Positions 12,867 to 31,027 of a stretch of DNA of 64,000 nt are shown piece after piece (within the stretch, counting starts at the first letter, position 1; each line of letters opens with the position of its first letter). The notes beneath the pieces were generated by a model, which was not told the origin of the DNA, did not search any database, and saw only the letters and a list, made by a program, of their open reading frames with translations. Made by a program: the position numbers and the translations under genes. Source of the DNA: Candidatus Lightella neohaematopini (GTDB taxonomy: Bacteria > Pseudomonadota > Gammaproteobacteria > Enterobacterales > Enterobacteriaceae); the NCBI GenBank assembly GCA_025728535.1, contig JAOBJO010000002.1:31635-95634 (forward strand). The letters run 5' to 3'.

Positions 12867-13838
12867 ATGTCTCTTAACAAAATATCAATATTTGATGATT
12901 TTATATCTACTGGTAAATCTATTTTAAAAAAGGAAATAGATTACTTAAAAAAATTATATAAATGCATCGATGTTAATTTCCATAATGCATGTAAGTTAAT
13001 ATTATACTGTACAGGAAAAGTAATTACAATGGGTGTTGGTAAATCTGGACATATAGCTAAAAAAATAGCAGCTACTTTTTCTAGTACTGGTACTCCATCA
13101 TTTTTTATTCATCCTAGTGATGCTGGTCATGGTGATTTAGGTATGATATCTAGTAATGATATTATTGTAATATTATCTAATTCTGGAGAATCTAGAGAAT
13201 TATTAGTTTTAATTCCAACATTAAAATATCTAAAAGTTAATATTATTAGCATAACAAGAAGTATTGGTAGTACAATTAGTAAAATATCCCAAGTTAATAT
13301 TTGCACTAATATTATGCAAGAAGTTTGCATGTTTGGACTAGCACCAACTACTAGTGCTGTTGCTATGTTAATAATCGGAGATACTTTAGCAATTACTTTG
13401 TCTAAAGTAAAAAATTTTACTTTAAGTAAGTTTATTTTATCACATCCAGAAGGTACAATAAAAAATACTAATTTAATTAAGGTTAGTGATGTTATGCGTA
13501 ATGTTAAAGATGTACCTATTGTTTATCATGATACTTCATTATATGAAGTAATGAAAAAAATAAATAATTATTTAGGTATAGTTATCATTTTTAATAAAAA
13601 TAATAATGTTATTGGTATAGTAACAAATAAAGATATAAAAAATTTTCTATTTAAAAATAGTAATTTAAAACAAACGAATATTTCGTTAGTAATGAAGACT
13701 AATTTAATTAGTATTGAATCTAATCAACCACTGATTAATGCTATTAATTTAATTAAATTAAATAGAATAAAAAATTTAATTGTAATAGATAATTATAAAT
13801 TAATCGGTATAATTAACATATATGATATTTTTATATAA
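12867..13838 (+). CDS. kdsD: Arabinose-5-phosphate isomerase (SIS plus CBS domains)
   Basis: GKVITMGVGKSGHIAKKIAATFSSTGTPSFFIHPSDAGHGDLGMI..SNSGES..GLAPTTS matches E. coli KdsD. It is followed by kdsC. Confidence 0.93.
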   Translation: MSLNKISIFDDFISTGKSILKKEIDYLKKLYKCIDVNFHNACKLILYCTGKVITMGVGKSGHIAKKIAATFSSTGTPSFFIHPSDAGHGDLGMISSNDIIVILSNSGESRELLVLIPTLKYLKVNIISITRSIGSTISKISQVNICTNIMQEVCMFGLAPTTSAVAMLIIGDTLAITLSKVKNFTLSKFILSHPEGTIKNTNLIKVSDVMRNVKDVPIVYHDTSLYEVMKKINNYLGIVIIFNKNNNVIGIVTNKDIKNFLFKNSNLKQTNISLVMKTNLISIESNQPLINAINLIKLNRIKNLIVIDNYKLIGIINIYDIFI

Positions 13839-13847
13839 ATTAAACTA

Positions 13848-14393
13848 ATGAATGAGAAAAACATAAAAAATATTAATAATAATTTAATAACAAGAAAAAT
13901 ATTAAATCTTGTCAAGAATATTAAATTATTGGTTTGTGATATAGATGGTGTTATGACTAATAACATTATTTATGTTGATCATAATGGTGAAGAATTAAGA
14001 TCATTTAATGTTCGTGATAGCTATGGTATTTTTTGTTTAAAAAAATTTAATATAGAGGTTGCAGTAATTAGCGGTAGATATTCTAAAGTAGTAAATTACT
14101 ATTGTAATACTTTAAATATTAAGTATATATATCAAAATAAATTAGATAAAGTTCCAGTATTACATGAAATTTTAAATCAGTTAAATTTAACTGTTGATGA
14201 TACTGCTTATATCGGTGATGATTTAATAGATATTCCTGTTATGAAATTAGTAAAGTTTAGTGTAGCTGTATTTGATGCTCATCCAGCTCTATTTAAAATA
14301 GCTAACTATGTAACTAATTATGTGGGTGGTAATGGAGCAGTAAGAGAAGTATGTGATCTATTACTTATTGCGCAAAATAAATTAACTTATTAA
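13848..14393 (+). CDS. kdsC: KDO-8-phosphate phosphatase (HAD superfamily)
   Basis: 181-aa ORF with the HAD motif LLVCDIDGVMT and GDDLIDIPVM..AV. It lies in the order kdsD-kdsC-lptA. Confidence 0.9.
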   Translation: MNEKNIKNINNNLITRKILNLVKNIKLLVCDIDGVMTNNIIYVDHNGEELRSFNVRDSYGIFCLKKFNIEVAVISGRYSKVVNYYCNTLNIKYIYQNKLDKVPVLHEILNQLNLTVDDTAYIGDDLIDIPVMKLVKFSVAVFDAHPALFKIANYVTNYVGGNGAVREVCDLLLIAQNKLTY

Positions 14394-14487
14394 TTTAATA
14401 ATTAAAATACTGTTATATATTCAATAATTTTAATATTTTAATTATTACTATTAATAAAATATGTTAATATAGTTAGATAGATTAGTT

Positions 14488-14985
14488 ATGTTTTCTTTTT
14501 ATCAAAATTATCTAAAAATAATTAATTTTTTATTATATATATTATTAATTTTAACTACTAAATGTAGTATTTTAGCAAATATAATAAATAATATTTCAAT
14601 ATCATCAGATAATCAAATAATTAATTTATTTAATAATACTATTAAATTTAGTAATAATGTTAAAATTAAGTATTCTAATATAATAATTAATGCCAATAAA
14701 GTTATTGGTAATATTAATCATAATAATAATATTATTATTTATGGATATGGTAGCCCGCTAATACATATTAGAATATGTAATAATAATATTAATTTTTTAG
14801 GTGAATCTAATCAATTTTACTTTAACAAAAATAAAAATATTATTCTCTTAATAAATAATGTTAATATTTATTATAAAAATATTCATATTTATAGTAAATA
14901 TATAGTATATACAATTAATAAAAAACAAATACTACTATTTAATAGTAGTAAAAAGCAGGTACATATTCTAATTAAATATTTTTAG
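14488..14985 (+). CDS. lptA: Periplasmic LPS transport protein LptA (OstA-like fold)
   Basis: 165-aa ORF with an N-terminal hydrophobic signal. ISISSDNQIINLFNNTIKFSNNVKIKYSNIIINANKVIG..GYGSPLIHI aligns with E. coli LptA IHIESDQQSLDMQGNVVTFTGNVIVTQGTIKINADKVVV..GYGKPATFY. It sits directly upstream of lptB. Confidence 0.8.
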   Translation: MFSFYQNYLKIINFLLYILLILTTKCSILANIINNISISSDNQIINLFNNTIKFSNNVKIKYSNIIINANKVIGNINHNNNIIIYGYGSPLIHIRICNNNINFLGESNQFYFNKNKNIILLINNVNIYYKNIHIYSKYIVYTINKKQILLFNSSKKQVHILIKYF

Positions 14986-14986
14986 A

Positions 14987-15711
14987 ATGAGTTTTTTAAT
15001 TATAAAAAATCTTATTAAGAAATATAATAATAAATTAATAATTAATAATATTAATTTAAGCTTTAGTTCAAAAAAAATAATAGGTATACTAGGACCTAAT
15101 GGTTCTGGTAAAACTACTATATTTTATACAATTATTGGTATTATTAAAAATGATTATGGAGATATAATAATTGATAATATTAATATAACTAAATTTTCTA
15201 TACATAAAAGAGTATACTATGGTATTAATTTTTTACCTCAAAAAACTTCCATCTTTCGTAACTTAAGTGTTTTCGATAATATTATGATTGTATTAGAAAA
15301 TAAAAAGTTTTTGTCGTATAAAAAAAAAATGAATTAGTATTATCATTAATGAAAAAATTTAATATAGAACATTTAATTAATAGTATTGGATATACATTAT
15401 CTGGAGGTGAATGTAGGAAAGTAGAAATAGCTCGTGTTATAGCAACTAATCCAAAATTTATATTGTTCGATGAGCCATTTTTAGGTATAGATCCAGTATC
15501 AATATCAAAAATAAAAAGTATTATTAAACAATTAAATAATGATGGTTTAGGGGTAATAATTACTGATCATAATACTAAGGAAATCTTTAATTTATGTGAT
15601 GAATTGTATATCTTATATAAAGGTGAAGTTATAGCTCATGGTACACCTGAAGAAATTAGATCTAACAAGCAAGTAAAATTATTGTATTTAGGAAAAAATT
15701 TTATATGTTAA
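14987..15711 (+). pseudogene. lptB: LPS export ABC transporter ATPase LptB, interrupted by a frameshift inside an A10 run (15320-15329). It is either a pseudogene, a homopolymer sequencing error, or a gene rescued by slippage.
   Basis: Two adjacent ORFs, 14987-15337 (Walker A GPNGSGKTT) and 15349-15711 (LSGGECRKVEIAR, ILFDEPF, ITDHN), together align to the whole of E. coli LptB. A shift of one base in the A run joins ..LSYKKK to NELVLSLMKKFNIEHL.. (E. coli ..ANELMEEFHIEHL..). The joined product is 241 aa. Confidence 0.85.
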
Positions 15712-15790: not shown

Positions 15791-16447
15791 ATGTTAAATT
15801 ATAGTATAATATATATTATTTCTGCACCTAGTGGTACTGGGAAATCTAGCTTAATTAAATCATTTATTGGTAATAAATTCCTAAAAAATATAGTAATATC
15901 AACTTCATATACAACAAGAAAGAGAAGAATAGGAGAAAAACATGGAAAACATTATTTTTTTGTTTCGGTAAAAGAATTTAAAGAGATGATTAAGAAAAAA
16001 ATTTTTTTAGAATATGCTATTGTTTTTGGTAATTATTATGGTACCGCATATTCAAATATAGAAAATTTAACAAATAAAAATACTAGTATAATTTTAAATA
16101 TAGATTGGCAAGGAGCAAGACAAGTTAAAAGTAAATTATCAAATGTTTGTAGTATATTTATAATTCCACCGTCTATAGAAGAATTAAATAACAGATTATA
16201 TTTAAGAGGTCAAGACAGTACTTATATTATTAAAAATAGAATCAAACAGTTTTATAATGATATAAAGCATTATAAGGAATATAATTATTTAATAATAAAT
16301 GATAAATTTGATTTAACTCTAAAACAATTAAAAGCTATTATATTAGCTGAACAATTAAGAACTAAATATCAAAAAAATAATTATTTATTAGATCAGGAAT
16401 TTTATGGCAAGGATAACTGTACAGAAAGCAGTAGAAAAAGTAGGTAA
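15791..16447 (+). CDS. gmk: Guanylate kinase
   Basis: 218-aa ORF with P-loop SAPSGTGKSSL, then TTR..R.GE..G..Y.F. The 3' end overlaps rpoZ by 44 nt. Confidence 0.93.
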   Translation: MLNYSIIYIISAPSGTGKSSLIKSFIGNKFLKNIVISTSYTTRKRRIGEKHGKHYFFVSVKEFKEMIKKKIFLEYAIVFGNYYGTAYSNIENLTNKNTSIILNIDWQGARQVKSKLSNVCSIFIIPPSIEELNNRLYLRGQDSTYIIKNRIKQFYNDIKHYKEYNYLIINDKFDLTLKQLKAIILAEQLRTKYQKNNYLLDQEFYGKDNCTESSRKSR

Positions 16448-16601
16448 CGTATTTGATTTAATTTTAATTGCTGCAAGTAAAGCAAGAAATATACAAAACA
16501 ATGAGAGAATGTCTATACTAAATAACAAAATTAATGATAAATGTACAATCGCTGCTCTTAAAGATATTGAAAAAAATTATTCGATTTATGATTATAAATA
16601 A
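16404..16601 (+). CDS. rpoZ: RNA polymerase omega subunit (short, 65 aa)
   Basis: MARITVQKAVEKVGNVFDLILIAASKARNIQ matches E. coli RpoZ [31 protein letters not shown]. It follows gmk as in E. coli. Confidence 0.92.
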   Translation: MARITVQKAVEKVGNVFDLILIAASKARNIQNNERMSILNNKINDKCTIAALKDIEKNYSIYDYK

Positions 16602-18042: not shown

Positions 18043-19104
18043 TTATATTATATTTTTATTAATTTTTATACAGTATATTAATACTATTAAATGTGTTAAT
18101 ATTATTAATGGTAGTGTTTTATGCGCAATAAAACTTATATATAATGTAAATTGATGTATAATATAAAACAAGACATTTACTATTATACCATTTATTATGT
18201 TTTTTGTAGATGATATATTTATTTTACGAAAACTTAATGAAGTTATAATAAGTATAATAATAGTAATATTGATTGGTAATAATAATTTATTCCACATATA
18301 TAATTGATAATAATAATAATCTATATTATTTTTTTTAAAATAATTAATTTGATGATATAATTGTTTAATAGATAATAATTCTGGAGCTACAGTAAGAATA
18401 TATAATTCATATGGTGTTAAATCAGTATGCCATATATAAGTTGACACATAATAATATAATACAGGTTTAGTTAATCTTAAATATCTTACTTGATATAATA
18501 CCCAGTAATTTTTAATAAACTTTGCCATTTTAGCATAATAAATAATGGATAACTTATTTTTTACAATACAAAATATATTTATATTATATATTTTATTGTT
18601 ATATATATTACCTATTAAGATTAATTTTTTATTATTTGTAATATAAATATTATAGTTAGTAATATTTTTTTTTGTATTAAAATTAAATAAAAGATAATTA
18701 AAAGATAGAATAACTTCTAAGATTATTAGAAAAAGTATTGATACAGTAATACTAGTTTTAACTAATAGTGTCACAAAATTATAATACTTTTTTTTTAATG
18801 TTAGAATTACTATAAATTCGTTCTTTATTTTTAAATAGATTATACTAAATAATACAGATAAAGAAATTATTATTGGTAAAAATAATTCTATATCTTTAAC
18901 AAGATTAAAGAAAATTATTAATATAATATAAGTAATAGAGTAATTATATAACTTATGTAATAATTCAATTAACTTATTAATACAAGACAAAAAACTTATA
19001 ATAAACGAAATTTGTATAGCATAAATAAAAATAATTCTTATAATATATAAATTTAGTATACCAAAAAGTAGTTTTATATATTTATTAATACTATTTAATA
19101 TCAT
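18043..19104 (-). CDS. lptG: LPS export ABC transporter permease LptG
   Basis: 353-aa polytopic membrane ORF. WHTDLTPYELYILTVAPELLSIKQLYHQINYFKKNNIDYYYYQLYMWNKLLLP aligns with E. coli LptG WKTNLTPDKLGVVALDPDALSISGLHNYVKYLKSSGQDAGRYQLNMWSKIFQP. There is an ATGA overlap with the lptF stop. Confidence 0.88.
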   Translation of the reverse strand: MILNSINKYIKLLFGILNLYIIRIIFIYAIQISFIISFLSCINKLIELLHKLYNYSITYIILIIFFNLVKDIELFLPIIISLSVLFSIIYLKIKNEFIVILTLKKKYYNFVTLLVKTSITVSILFLIILEVILSFNYLLFNFNTKKNITNYNIYITNNKKLILIGNIYNNKIYNINIFCIVKNKLSIIYYAKMAKFIKNYWVLYQVRYLRLTKPVLYYYVSTYIWHTDLTPYELYILTVAPELLSIKQLYHQINYFKKNNIDYYYYQLYMWNKLLLPINITIIILIITSLSFRKINISSTKNIINGIIVNVLFYIIHQFTLYISFIAHKTLPLIILTHLIVLIYCIKINKNII

Positions 19105-20123
19105 AGTAATAATTTATCAGTTAAATATTTTATTAATATTGTAATAACTAAATAACATACATATATTAACCAAATTAATAAATATGAATAGCTAACTGTA
19201 CTAATACGTAGTAAATGTTGTATAATAAAAAAAAGTGCATATAATATCATTATAAATGAAGTGCTTAATATTTTTTTGATATTACTAATTAACATAGTTG
19301 TAGATAGTAAATAAAATAACGGTATAGATAATAACAAACTACATCTCCAATGTAATTCATTTATAGTTATATTATTGATGTTAGATATTAATTGATTTAA
19401 ACTTAACTGATTAACTAACAAATTATGCTTTTTATTTTTTTTAATATCGAAGAATAAATAATATTTCTTAAATTTTGCTGTTATTAGATTATGATTAAAT
19501 AGATCATAATAGTAGTTATTACCATCATGTAATATAATTAATTTATAATTTTTATTATAAATAAAACTATAAATATTACCAGTACTTGCTAGGTAATATT
19601 TATTTTTTTTAATCTTTATTAAAAAAATATTATTTGATATTCTATTAGTGATAATATTATTATTTTGAATATTATTATTTAAATTATTTATTATTAACTG
19701 ATTAATATTATTTTGTTTACTATTAAATAATAATTGACAATAATATCTATTAGATATTGGTACAATCCACATACTATTAATAATAGTAAAAAACATAACA
19801 AAAATACTTATAATTAACAACACTAAGTGTATTATATTTTTATTATATCCACAGCTATATATAGCTAATAATTCGTTATTATTACGCATATGTTGTATAA
19901 TAATAAATACACTTATTATAATACTTATAGGTGTTACGATTTGTATTATTTCGGGAATTTTTAAAATTATTAAAATAATAGCTAAATTTTTACTAACATA
20001 TCCAATAGTAATTAATTTTAATATTCGTATTATTTTATGAAAAAAAAATATTAATACTAAAATTAGTATTACTAAAGTTTGAACTTTACACATTTTTCTA
20101 AATATATACTTAATGATAATCAT
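19101..20123 (-). CDS. lptF: LPS export ABC transporter permease LptF
   Basis: 340-aa membrane ORF. MIIIKYIFRKMCKVQTLVILILVLIFFFHKIIRIL matches E. coli LptF MIIIRYLVRETLKSQLAILFILLLIFFCQKLVRIL. It is the first gene of the lptFG pair and is divergent from valS, as in E. coli but without pepA and holC. Confidence 0.88.
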   Translation of the reverse strand: MIIIKYIFRKMCKVQTLVILILVLIFFFHKIIRILKLITIGYVSKNLAIILIILKIPEIIQIVTPISIIISVFIIIQHMRNNNELLAIYSCGYNKNIIHLVLLIISIFVMFFTIINSMWIVPISNRYYCQLLFNSKQNNINQLIINNLNNNIQNNNIITNRISNNIFLIKIKKNKYYLASTGNIYSFIYNKNYKLIILHDGNNYYYDLFNHNLITAKFKKYYLFFDIKKNKKHNLLVNQLSLNQLISNINNITINELHWRCSLLLSIPLFYLLSTTMLISNIKKILSTSFIMILYALFFIIQHLLRISTVSYSYLLIWLIYVCYLVITILIKYLTDKLLL

Positions 20124-29655: not shown

Positions 29656-30057
29656 TTGAAACACAATCGTCGTAAAGCAAGAATACGAGCATTACAAGCG
29701 TTATACTCTTCAAGAATAATAAAAAACGTAAATAATAATTTTATTTTTAAATTAAATAAATCAATTATTGATGTGTCTTATTTTTATAAATTATATTTAG
29801 GAGTTTTAACCAATTATGATAAATTAGATAGTGTCATGTTACCTTATTTATCACGTAGTATTAATAAATTAGATCATATAGAACATACAATATTAAGAAT
29901 TGCTGTATTTGAGTTAACATATCATGATTATATACCATATAAGGTAGTGATTAATGAGGCTATTGAATTAGCTAAAATGTTTGGTTCTTGTAGTAGTTAT
30001 AAATTTATTAACGGTGTATTAGATAAAATTATTAATAAAATTAATATAAAAAAATAA
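29656..30057 (+). CDS. nusB: Transcription antitermination factor NusB
   Basis: 133-aa ORF starting at a TTG. RRKARIRALQALYS..LRIAVFEL.....IPYKVVINEAIELAKMFG...SYKFINGVLDK matches E. coli NusB. Confidence 0.93.
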   Translation: MKHNRRKARIRALQALYSSRIIKNVNNNFIFKLNKSIIDVSYFYKLYLGVLTNYDKLDSVMLPYLSRSINKLDHIEHTILRIAVFELTYHDYIPYKVVINEAIELAKMFGSCSSYKFINGVLDKIINKINIKK

Positions 30058-30064
30058 TTATATT

Positions 30065-31027
30065 ATGAATGAATTTTATATTATAAATCGTTTTTTTAAA
30101 AAAAAAATAAACGATAGTTGTGTAAAACTTGGTATCGGAGACGATTGTGCATTACTGTCAATTGACAGCAGTAAATACTTTATAACATTAAGTACTAACT
30201 CATTAGTATCTGGAGTACATTTCTTACCTAATGTTAATCCAAGTAATTTAGGATATAAAATAGTAGCTGTTAATGTAAGTGATATAGCAGCTATGGGAGG
30301 TGTTCCAAAATGGATTACTATATCTTTAATATTACCAAAGTATGATGAGTACTGGTTATCTTTATTTAGTGATGGATTATTTAAACAATTAAATTATTAT
30401 AATATTAGTTTAATAGGTGGTGATCTTAGTAAAGGTAAATTATTAAGTATTACGGCAACTATATATGGAGTGATACAAATAAATAAACAGTTAACTAAAT
30501 CTGGAATGAATATAAATGATATGATTTACGTTACTGGAACACTTGGAGATAGTGCTTATGGATTAGAAATTTTAAAAAAAAATATTCAAGTTTCTGATAA
30601 AAAACATAAATTATACTTCATAAGTAAACATCTAAGACCTAGGCCACCAGTTAAATTTAGTCAAAGAATTAGAATTATTGCTAACTCTGCTACTGATATT
30701 TCTGATGGAATTTTAAAAGAAATATATAATATGTTAAGTAGTACTAAATATAGTGCCAAAATATATTTAAATTATATTCCGTTATCTAAAAATTTAAGAA
30801 AGTATGTTAATTATTATGATGCATTAAATTTAGTGTGTAATAGTGAAGATTATGAGTTATGTTTTACTATCAAAAAAAACAATATTTATTTCTTAAATAA
30901 ATTAAAAAAAAATACTAAAATTACTTGTATTGGTAAAATTATTCCTTATATAGGGAGAAGATTATTGTTATTAAATTACAATAGTAAATTTTTAAAAAAT
31001 CCATTAGGATACGATCATTTTAATTAA
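30065..31027 (+). CDS. thiL: Thiamine-monophosphate kinase
   Basis: 320-aa ORF with LGIGDDCALL..VSGVHF and VNVSDIAAMGG (AIR synthase-like fold). It lies in nusB-thiL-pgpA synteny and contains an intact in-frame A10 run at 30098-30107. Confidence 0.9.
   Translation: MNEFYIINRFFKKKINDSCVKLGIGDDCALLSIDSSKYFITLSTNSLVSGVHFLPNVNPSNLGYKIVAVNVSDIAAMGGVPKWITISLILPKYDEYWLSLFSDGLFKQLNYYNISLIGGDLSKGKLLSITATIYGVIQINKQLTKSGMNINDMIYVTGTLGDSAYGLEILKKNIQVSDKKHKLYFISKHLRPRPPVKFSQRIRIIANSATDISDGILKEIYNMLSSTKYSAKIYLNYIPLSKNLRKYVNYYDALNLVCNSEDYELCFTIKKNNIYFLNKLKKNTKITCIGKIIPYIGRRLLLLNYNSKFLKNPLGYDHFN

Follow-up and report, generated by a model that had tools for sequence, protein, structure and literature searches.

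Does a louse endosymbiont still make LptB, the ATPase of lipopolysaccharide (LPS) export, from an lptB gene whose reading frame is broken within a run of A residues? The question is raised by Candidatus Lightella neohaematopini, with a genome of 0.46 Mb and 22.2% GC (PMC9376444), and in particular by the 64,000-nt stretch of it analysed here (the window), which at 22.7% GC is that of an AT-rich, reduced endosymbiont. In the window, lptB is divided over two frames of the forward strand, as set out in the following features.

14987 to 15337, forward strand: 5' part of lptB in the 0 frame (ORF1), codons 1-114 of LptB, with Walker A at 36-43 and the Q-loop at 83-85
15318 to 15320, forward strand: TAA stop in the -1 frame, directly 5' of the A run
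15320 to 15329, forward strand: A10 homopolymer, the frameshift and candidate slippage site, read in the 0 frame as TAT AAA AAA AAA ATG
15330 to 15711, forward strand: 3' part of lptB in the -1 frame, codons 118-241, with LSGGE (138), Walker B (159) and the H-loop (193)
15335 to 15337, forward strand: TAG stop in the 0 frame, the same in all frameshifted strains
15349 to 15351, forward strand: ATG that opens ORF2
15349 to 15711, forward strand: ORF2 of the ORF listing, 120 aa, covering the signature motif, Walker B and the H-loop
15709 to 15711, forward strand: TAA, the stop codon of lptB and the end of its -1-frame 3' part

Beyond codon 114, ORF1 runs through two out-of-frame codons into the TAG, giving a product of 116 aa with the C-terminus ...SYKKKMN in the ORF listing. 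The -1 frame is closed upstream by the TAA next to the run (frame-2 translation ...FVV*KKNELV) and the 0 frame is closed downstream by the TAG, so that any change of frame has to take place inside or just 3' of A10. With ten A's where 11 positions are needed, lptB is one A short; the lesion is a single-base indel within a long (about nine or more) A/T homopolymer in coding sequence, and the frame can be restored there by adding one A or removing two in the RNA, or by ribosomes slipping by -1 on A AAA AAA. A first-pass annotation of this DNA had already placed the run and the end of ORF1 at these positions, and its coordinates and counts all hold.

Adding one A yields an ORF of 726 nt and 241 aa with the junction ...SYKKKNELVLSLMKKFNIEHL..., and here too the first-pass annotation proved right in that the half with Walker A is joined to the half with the signature motif, Walker B and the H-loop in a protein of exactly 241 aa. 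The repaired protein aligns without gaps to 241-aa LptB chains in the PDB (residues 2-239 to 2-239, E = 5e-79) and reaches 300.5 bits on TIGR04406, the NCBIfam model for LptB, for which the curated cut-off is 240. Each half alone stays under this cut-off (129 and 158 bits), the 5' half matching profile positions 2-112 and the 3' half positions 120-237. The LptB motifs are complete and in the E. coli register: GPNGSGKT (36), LPQ (83), LSGGE (138), ILFDE (159) and TDHN (193). At the level of the predicted sequence, the identity of the protein as LptB is settled by these gapless HMM and PDB alignments. An exact-protein look-up of ORF2 returned no record.

The A10 run by itself is no more than chance, as base composition predicts about six runs of ten or more in 64 kb and two are seen. 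Of the window's 139 A/T runs of at least seven, it is nevertheless the only one at which a broken gene is mended by a 1-nt indel. A second site flagged by the indel scan (30048-30054) was discarded, since an indel there merely fuses a nusB-like ORF with the adjacent thiL and the site does not mark a frameshifted gene. The other 14 runs of nine or more in the window are in frame in 14/14 cases, and the long runs that keep their frame include an A10 at 30098-30107 in thiL and, in four strains, a T10 in lptG.

The gene is surrounded by further LPS genes, among them its two permease partners.

12867 to 14393, forward strand: kdsD and kdsC, genes for Kdo of the LPS core (NF008141, 316 bits; NF007019, 219 bits)
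14488 to 14985, forward strand: lptA, divergent, matched by TIGR03002 and NF008143 (E about 1e-12, both under the curated cut-offs), ending 2 nt before the start of lptB
18043 to 19104, reverse strand: lptG, permease partner of LptB, intact and divergent (TIGR04408, E = 4e-37; dN/dS 0.23-0.41)
19101 to 20123, reverse strand: lptF, permease partner of LptB, intact and divergent (TIGR04407, E = 6e-41)

The kdsD and kdsC genes head the conserved cluster kdsD-kdsC-(lptC)-lptA-lptB, and the profile matches bear out the earlier statement that lptA, lptF and lptG are intact within the window. This neighbourhood bears on the first of the explanations to be weighed, namely that lptB is a plain pseudogene, the function of the export ATPase being lost and both ORFs being decaying remnants. 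Loss of the system could be read from the lack of an lptC in its usual place (the 94-nt gap between kdsC and lptA holds none), from the fast evolution of lptA, lptF and lptG, and from the public annotation of the N-terminal fragment as a separate 'ATP-binding cassette domain-containing protein'; repaired LptB, however, passes its curated family cut-off, unlike lptA, lptF and lptG.

More telling is the same site in related strains, a comparison that the first-pass annotation had proposed. We compared the lptB locus in 11 Lightella assemblies (the window and ten other strains), all of them short-read metagenome assemblies from a single louse each, with the L207 draft used for screening the other assemblies. 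A10 and the same premature TAG are found in six of the ten other strains and thus in seven genomes including the window (the others being GCA_025728425.1, L222, GCA_025728315.1, L220, L218 and L217), which come from separate louse specimens and libraries and form two deep lineages at about 14% DNA divergence (dS about 0.4). The other four of the ten are in frame, and the run is interrupted in 4/4 of these (A8-G-A2 in L207), against a perfect A10 in 7/7 frameshifted genomes. The in-frame L207 sequence, AAA AAA AAG AAT GAG, encodes YKKKNEL, the very peptide expected from the window after repair. In lptB of the seven frameshifted genomes, no other stop or indel was seen, which extends to six other strains the earlier remark that neither half is otherwise decayed; a single correction gives a full-length orthologue in each of them (240-242 aa). 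In L218, the base 3' of A10 is C rather than T, and the resulting change of AAT to AAC is synonymous in the repaired frame only.

These strains also speak to the idea of a split gene, in which the halves would be made as separate polypeptides that assemble into the ATPase. The idea takes its appeal from the ATG at 15349 of the window, which opens an ORF with all three C-terminal motifs. That ATG is unique to the window strain; L207 and the remaining frameshifted strains have ATT (Ile) at this codon. In GCA_025728425.1, L222, L220 and L218, the first ATG, GTG or TTG past the shift lies at least at codon 160, which is past the signature motif and either at Walker B or 3' of it. Constraint nonetheless extends over the entire C-terminal half. 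A two-polypeptide gene is scarcely credible on these grounds, and we reject it, as most frameshifted strains have no start codon for the C-terminal half.

Both halves of lptB are under continued purifying selection in the repaired frame. Between frameshifted strains, dN/dS of repaired lptB is 0.14-0.32, within the range of 20 flanking genes (0.02-0.49), and it is 0.06-0.27 for the C-terminal half 3' of the shift; in Fisher tests that compare non-synonymous with synonymous changes, p ranges from 8e-6 to 8e-14. The pair L222 and GCA_025728315.1, both frameshifted and 97% identical, differ by 11 synonymous and five non-synonymous changes (ratio 0.11, p = 2e-5). The window and GCA_025728425.1 are separated by just three changes of each kind, which leaves room for lost function in that pair and is not decisive alone. 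Under neutral drift, about six stops would be expected on one tip branch (d = 0.10), and the probability of finding none is 0.0016. The decaying pseudogene is therefore rejected, lptB showing neither relaxed constraint nor accumulated stops or indels; we regard it as very improbable, and the recent pseudogenisation that the first-pass annotation had still allowed for falls with it, given seven assemblies in two deep lineages with these ratios. Selection for an uninterrupted tract, on the other hand, is not significant: the probability that all Lys codons in the run are AAA in about five lineages is about 0.08, AAG making up 16% of Lys codons.

If lptB is intact in its protein, the frameshift might lie in the assemblies, the true run being A11, reported as A10 by Illumina sequencing and metaSPAdes, and the gene an ordinary one. 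All inputs are short-read metagenome assemblies of single lice, and normal dN/dS is what an intact gene shows. The simplest sequence history also runs against a real frameshift: A11 in all 'frameshifted' strains requires one A-to-G substitution, in L207, and nothing else, whereas under a real frameshift either a deletion was later compensated by an insertion in L207 or deletions occurred several times in parallel. The tree, with a near-trichotomy of its three deep lineages and a star-like L207 clade (bootstrap 55-66%), does not fix how many indel events there were. Moreover, runs of 11 or more are absent from about 170 kb of Lightella assemblies, where base composition predicts about seven, and the assemblies consequently give no positive control for the correct calling of an 11-mer. 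Set against this are the same A10 from seven independent Illumina libraries and the correct frame of the 14 other runs of nine or more in the window and of T10 in lptG of four strains. In addition, GCA_025728315.1 is probably L469, judging by accession order, and would then come from a separate run (100-nt versus 160-nt reads). The screening draft, L207, is itself in frame, so that reference bias would push towards an in-frame call, and we know of no Illumina and SPAdes behaviour that consistently removes one base from an 11-mer in the consensus. A miscall is thus unlikely, in our view.

Another way to retain an intact protein is a mixture of genome copies. Long homopolymers are hypermutable in repair-poor endosymbionts, and replication slippage could keep a mix of A10 and A11 copies in a polyploid symbiont, the in-frame copies supplying LptB and the assemblies reporting the A10 majority. 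Frequent switching of this kind would fit the varying frame state in a star-like clade of close relatives (L207 as opposed to L220 and L222), and it accounts for purifying selection equally well. Yet an uninterrupted, in-frame A11 is the consensus in 0/11 assemblies, and the protein database, with its incomplete coverage, holds no full-length LptB of any frameshifted strain. Logan (lgn) entries for Lightella lptB are likewise absent from that database, and coverage there is too patchy for this to be informative on A10 versus A11. We give such heterogeneity little credence as the sole explanation; it is compatible with slippage at the RNA level, and both may act together.

We therefore favour, with a probability of roughly 0.65, a real frameshift in an lptB gene that still yields full-length LptB by a change of frame within the run, most likely through RNA polymerase slippage. 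Most genome copies probably carry the frameshift in their DNA, as the independent libraries suggest, and slippage is the likely rescue route, in keeping with the precedents discussed below; given normal purifying selection in seven genomes, lptB is most likely still expressed in this way. In this model, RNA polymerase would slip on the T10 template and produce some transcripts carrying 11 A's, or else 8 or 14, which would read SYKKK-NELVLSL... up to the normal stop, so that a fraction of expression events would change frame within A10 and give the 241-aa LptB. The remaining events would end in the 116-aa truncated product, and the output of LptB is for this reason probably reduced rather than abolished. 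Among the three readings that the first-pass annotation had left side by side, that of a slippage-dependent gene is thus the best supported, and sequencing error is unlikely.

Ribosomes sliding by -1 on A AAA AAA would arrive at the same protein and may play a part too. As the main route in place of transcriptional slippage, ribosomal frameshifting has in its favour a canonical X XXY YYZ heptamer, A AAA AAA, in the 0 frame, at which a -1 shift yields exactly the 241-aa product; the shifting of tRNA-Lys on A-runs is known from E. coli dnaX and IS elements. No stimulatory structure is predicted downstream of A10: 15300-15420 folds with a minimum free energy of -9.9 kcal/mol (z = +0.87 versus shuffles). 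No Shine-Dalgarno-like element is present in the 30 nt upstream, GTATTAGAAAATAAAAAGTTTTTGTCGTAT, and the AAA codons number only three. Corrected transcripts have, furthermore, been found directly in the endosymbiont precedents, according to the relevant passages of PMC5009743. We hold ribosomal frameshifting as the main route to be quite improbable.

A more far-reaching version of the slippage model may also be considered, in which the frameshift is more than tolerated damage: it is a lasting, stable condition of an essential envelope gene, predates the Lightella radiation (dS about 0.4) and has been reverted only in L207, through an insertion which at the same time breaks up the run. In most Lightella, LPS export would then be obligatorily slippage-dependent, and A10 would act as a throttle that holds LptB, and hence surface LPS, low in the louse bacteriocyte. 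This version strikes us as rather doubtful.

Should slippage rescue be confirmed, lptB would offer a clean case from nature in which an essential gene of the cell envelope, encoding the LPS export ATPase, relies on polymerase infidelity for being expressed, with natural controls in the sister strains with an interrupted, in-frame tract and in the in-frame A10 of thiL in the same genome. The phenomenon described in Buchnera and Blochmannia would then reach louse symbionts, although the case opens no new kind of biology. Metabolic reconstructions of Lightella should count lptB as functional, public annotation at present splitting it into fragments. On the favoured reading, the case is a new and apparently unreported member of the class of slippage-rescued homopolymer frameshifts (Tamas 2008, Wernegreen 2010). 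The main text of the Lightella paper does not mention frameshift, lpt or homopolymer, its supplements listing LptB, LptF and LptG in a pathway table, and the Blochmannia passages of PMC4389277 name neither lptB nor yhbG as a frameshifted gene.

How does lptB compare with known systems? With E. coli dnaX and IS911-type sites (A AAA AAG) it shares a slippery, A-rich heptamer in the 0 frame and a product made from the -1 frame, and it differs from them in having neither a downstream hairpin or pseudoknot nor an upstream Shine-Dalgarno stimulator. In Thermus thermophilus dnaX, IS transposases and Citrobacter rodentium tssM (PMC4256274), as predicted for lptB, slippage on a run of about 9-11 A or T gives mRNAs of varied length and a full-length product. 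Those programmed realignment systems make two useful products or are regulated, whereas no use is evident for the 116-aa product of lptB, whose frameshift has the look of damage that is being tolerated. Closer in host are ftsI and ftsW of the head-louse symbiont Riesia (PMC10986857), likewise envelope genes of a louse endosymbiont with a poly(A) indel; there, further indels follow and correction of the tract fails to restore the ORF, so that these are true pseudogenes, whereas Lightella lptB is fully restored by one correction in seven genomes.

The closest likeness is to the poly(A)-tract frameshifts of Buchnera aphidicola and Blochmannia, which are conserved between species without decay (Tamas 2008, Wernegreen 2010, as described in passages of PMC3017870, PMC5009743 and PMC4389277) and in which slippage gives 12-50% corrected transcripts (Tamas 2008, as described in passages of PMC5009743 and PMC3017870). 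The first-pass annotation had cited slippage rescue in these two symbionts, and the same passages do describe the precedent. The host (a sucking louse), the lineage and the gene are different in Lightella, and corrected transcripts, which have been measured in those systems, are a prediction for lptB. The setting is otherwise shared, in that the genome is AT-rich and reduced and belongs to an insect endosymbiont, a single-base indel lies within a run of ten or so A's, the housekeeping or envelope gene around it is otherwise intact, and gain or loss of A's in the RNA can bring back the frame. Where Blochmannia is concerned, the Lightella comparison differs in covering 11 strain-level genomes of a single named species complex. 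The ancient Blochmannia frameshifts (Wernegreen 2010), as described in passages of PMC3017870 by Williams and Wernegreen (2010) and of PMC4389277, are, like that of lptB, common to diverged lineages with no other decay and with normal evolutionary rates; they have relatives in which an interrupted tract is in frame (there dnaX of B. pennsylvanicus), and they carry similar hints of independent events or reversions.

The lptB gene, which encodes the ATPase of LPS export, is split in the window by a one-base frameshift within an A10 run, as the first-pass annotation had claimed, leaving two reading frames (0 frame, that of ORF1; -1 frame, that of ORF2):

14987-15337, lptB ORF1, 116 aa, reading ...TCG TAT AAA AAA AAA ATG AAT TAG
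15318-15320, TAA closing the -1 frame
15320-15329, uninterrupted A10 run in lptB
15335-15337, TAG closing the 0 frame
15349-15711, lptB ORF2, 120 aa, -1 frame

Because of the positions of these TAA and TAG codons, the halves can be joined by a frame change only at the A10 run. Insertion of one A yields a 726-nt ORF of 241 aa, the length also predicted earlier for the joined protein, which aligns without gaps to 241-aa LptB chains in the PDB (2-239 to 2-239, E = 5e-79) and scores 300.5 bits on the NCBIfam LptB model TIGR04406 (cut-off, 240 bits); the separate halves match profile positions 2-112 (ORF1) and 120-237 (ORF2). The repaired protein has the full set of Walker A, Q-loop, LSGGE, Walker B and H-loop motifs at their E. 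coli positions, and the closest protein to the lptB product is LptB of Candidatus Lightella neohaematopini. The site aligns with a variable stretch between the Q-loop and the signature motif (E. coli ...LSAEQREDRA...), where one lysine more or less should presumably be tolerated.

The chipmunk louse Neohaematopinus pacificus has Candidatus Lightella neohaematopini as its obligate symbiont; twelve strain genomes of this symbiont, of ~0.46 Mb and 22.2% GC have been deposited, assembled with metaSPAdes from single-louse Illumina metagenomes with 100- or 160-nt reads (PMC9376444). Six distinct isolates stand as separate species representatives in the genome collection, and their retrieved regions (loci L003-L007 and L016) show between-lineage DNA differences of 7-14%; the name 'L. 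neohaematopini' covers a complex of lineages that are well separated. The comparison with sister strains proposed in the first-pass annotation was made at the lptB locus of ten other assemblies: isolates L201, L207, L217, L218, L220 and L222, and JAOBJP (GCA_025728425.1; a gapless 99.35% match to the window across 4.9 kb), JAOBJQ (GCA_025728405.1), JAOBJW (GCA_025728315.1) and JAOBJU (GCA_025728335.1). Judged by accession order, these four are probably isolates L209, L214, L469 and L221, respectively, and the window is probably from L208.

State of the lptB site in the window and the other Lightella assemblies
Frameshifted: window, JAOBJP, L222, JAOBJW, L220, L217; TAT A10 TGAATTAG
Frameshifted: L218; TAT A10 CGAATTAG
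In frame: L207; TAT AAA AAA AAG AAT GAG (YKKKNE)
In frame: L201, JAOBJU; TAT GAA AAA AGA AAA AAA
In frame: JAOBJQ; TAT AAA AAA AGA ACA AAA

The run is a perfect A10 in 7/7 frameshifted genomes and interrupted in 4/4 in-frame genomes. The peptide at the L207 site is that of repaired window lptB, and the T-to-C change after the run in L218 is synonymous (AAT to AAC) in the repaired frame only.

Both halves are open and, consistent with the earlier view that neither is otherwise decayed, a search for further stops or indels in the seven frameshifted genomes revealed none, the repaired lengths being 240-242 aa. Between frameshifted strains, dN/dS of repaired lptB is 0.14-0.32 (Nei-Gojobori; Fisher p 8e-6 to 8e-14), within the 0.02-0.49 spanned by 20 flanking genes, and that of the half 3' of the shift is 0.06-0.27. 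Between the lptB genes of the sister pair L222 and JAOBJW, both frameshifted and 97% identical, 11 changes are synonymous and 5 non-synonymous (ratio 0.11, p = 2e-5); downstream of the shift there are 6 synonymous changes and one conservative R-to-K. In a neutral simulation using the genome's third-position composition, ~6 new stop codons arose per 0.10 substitutions/site, with P(none) = 0.0016. On these grounds a plain pseudogene was rejected as highly improbable; the recent pseudogenisation offered earlier as one option does not agree with purifying selection on repaired lptB in frameshifted strains. Neighbour-joining trees of 9-15 flanking genes resolve three deep lineages ~14% apart, namely that of the window, that of L201 and a clade uniting L207, L217, L218, L220 and L222 (100% bootstrap vs window and L201), in which JAOBJW joins L222 and branching is star-like, with L207 never basal. 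Either the frameshift is thus older than this clade and was undone in L207, or it originated repeatedly; under either history, tip branches of dS ~0.1 passed frameshifted without decay.

At 22.7% GC an A10 run is by itself no surprise (~6 runs of at least 10 expected in the window, 2 seen); the frameshift is unusual. Among 139 A/T runs of at least 7 scanned in the window, the lptB A10 alone is a place where a 1-nt indel mends a broken gene, and the remaining 14 runs of at least 9 are all in frame, including A10 in thiL. A sequencing artefact, with a true tract of A11 in every 'A10' genome, would reduce the history to a single A-to-G change in L207, and no A/T run longer than 10 occurs across the window and loci L003-L007 and L016 (~170 kb; ~7 runs of at least 11 predicted by base composition), leaving no positive control for 11-mers. 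We nevertheless consider it unlikely, since seven independent libraries concur on A10, one of them (JAOBJW, by accession order probably L469) presumably coming from another run in which the read length differed, the other long runs are in frame, including an lptG T10 common to four strains, and the only other site flagged in the indel scan, 30048-30054, was discarded, an indel there merely fusing two adjoining genes. Runs of at least 10 are also depleted in the ~170 kb (10 seen, ~18 expected); the ceiling of 10 reflects either selection or contraction bias capping tracts, or under-reporting of 11-mers by the assemblies. The in-frame tracts are as follows:

30098-30107, A10 in thiL (30065-31027), ...FFKKKIN..., an internal control for slippage and candidate next frameshift
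L004 13856-13865, L005 13845-13854, L006 13819-13828 and L007 13857-13866, T10 in lptG (A10 on the coding strand), kept in L207, L222, L220 and L218
18788-18796, lptG tract in the window, C+T9 rather than T10

The LPS export machine thus has slippage-prone tracts in two of its genes, lptB and lptG.

Translation as two polypeptides from a split gene was rejected and is scarcely credible: the window's ORF2 start ATG corresponds to ATT (Ile) in L207 and in the remaining frameshifted strains, and in JAOBJP, L222, L220 and L218 no ATG, GTG or TTG follows the shift before codon 160, past the signature motif (138) and level with or beyond Walker B (159). Given the strong constraint on this C-terminal region, its translation must carry on from the N-terminal half. 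The best-supported reading, with a probability of about 0.65, is the first of the earlier options, that lptB is a slippage-dependent essential gene, the support being a frameshift held in seven genomes under purifying selection. The frame would be restored in the mRNA by one added A (or by -2 or +4), or alternatively by ribosomes slipping -1 on A AAA AAA; either route would give SYKKK-NELVLSL... and 241 aa. Transcriptional slippage is the favoured route, to which ribosomal sliding and DNA-level A10/A11 heterogeneity may contribute. That mixed A10 and A11 genome copies are themselves the source of LptB is doubtful. Ribosomal frameshifting as the main route is less probable still, as the region 3' of the run folds no better than shuffled sequence (z = +0.87) and a search upstream found no Shine-Dalgarno-like element; the site is without programmed frameshift stimulators.

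Of the Lpt components, the frameshifted lptB is conserved best, and it alone among lptA, lptB, lptF and lptG scores above its NCBIfam cut-off; lptA (14488-14985) and lptG and lptF (18043-20123) evolve more quickly than the genes around them (dN/dS 0.23-0.49). The kdsC-lptA gap (14394-14487) is only 94 nt, and lptC is absent from its canonical place in kdsD-kdsC-lptC-lptA-lptB; LptC is also listed as missing in the BUSCO tables of the Lightella paper (PMC9376444). The Lpt bridge may lack LptC, or lptC may be located elsewhere. Downstream, the last 44 nt of gmk (15791-16447) are shared with an rpoZ-like ORF (16404-16601), the overlap being 16404-16447, and the called Gmk product is 208 aa in L201 vs 218 aa in the window, indicating a C-terminus variable among strains.

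In four assemblies, public annotation gives the N-terminal lptB fragment an entry of its own, named 'ATP-binding cassette domain-containing protein', and the main text of the Lightella genome paper (PMC9376444) mentions neither lptB nor frameshifts nor homopolymers, so the case appears to be unreported. What is new is the gene, an essential ATPase, the host group, a louse symbiont, and a strain series that includes a natural in-frame 'revertant'; the mechanism is not new, and lptB would add a sound, testable case to a phenomenon already established. In Riesia, also a louse symbiont, poly(A) indels in ftsI and ftsW were followed by further indels, making these, unlike lptB, true pseudogenes (PMC10986857). 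The matching precedent is poly(A) slippage in Buchnera and Blochmannia, for which PMC3017870, PMC5009743 and PMC4389277 (citing Tamas 2008 and Wernegreen 2010) describe polymerase slippage with 12-50% of transcripts frame-corrected, frameshifted genes kept between populations and species without decay, and relatives with interrupted tracts in frame; Lightella lptB is likewise in frame where the tract is interrupted, and probably belongs to this known class.
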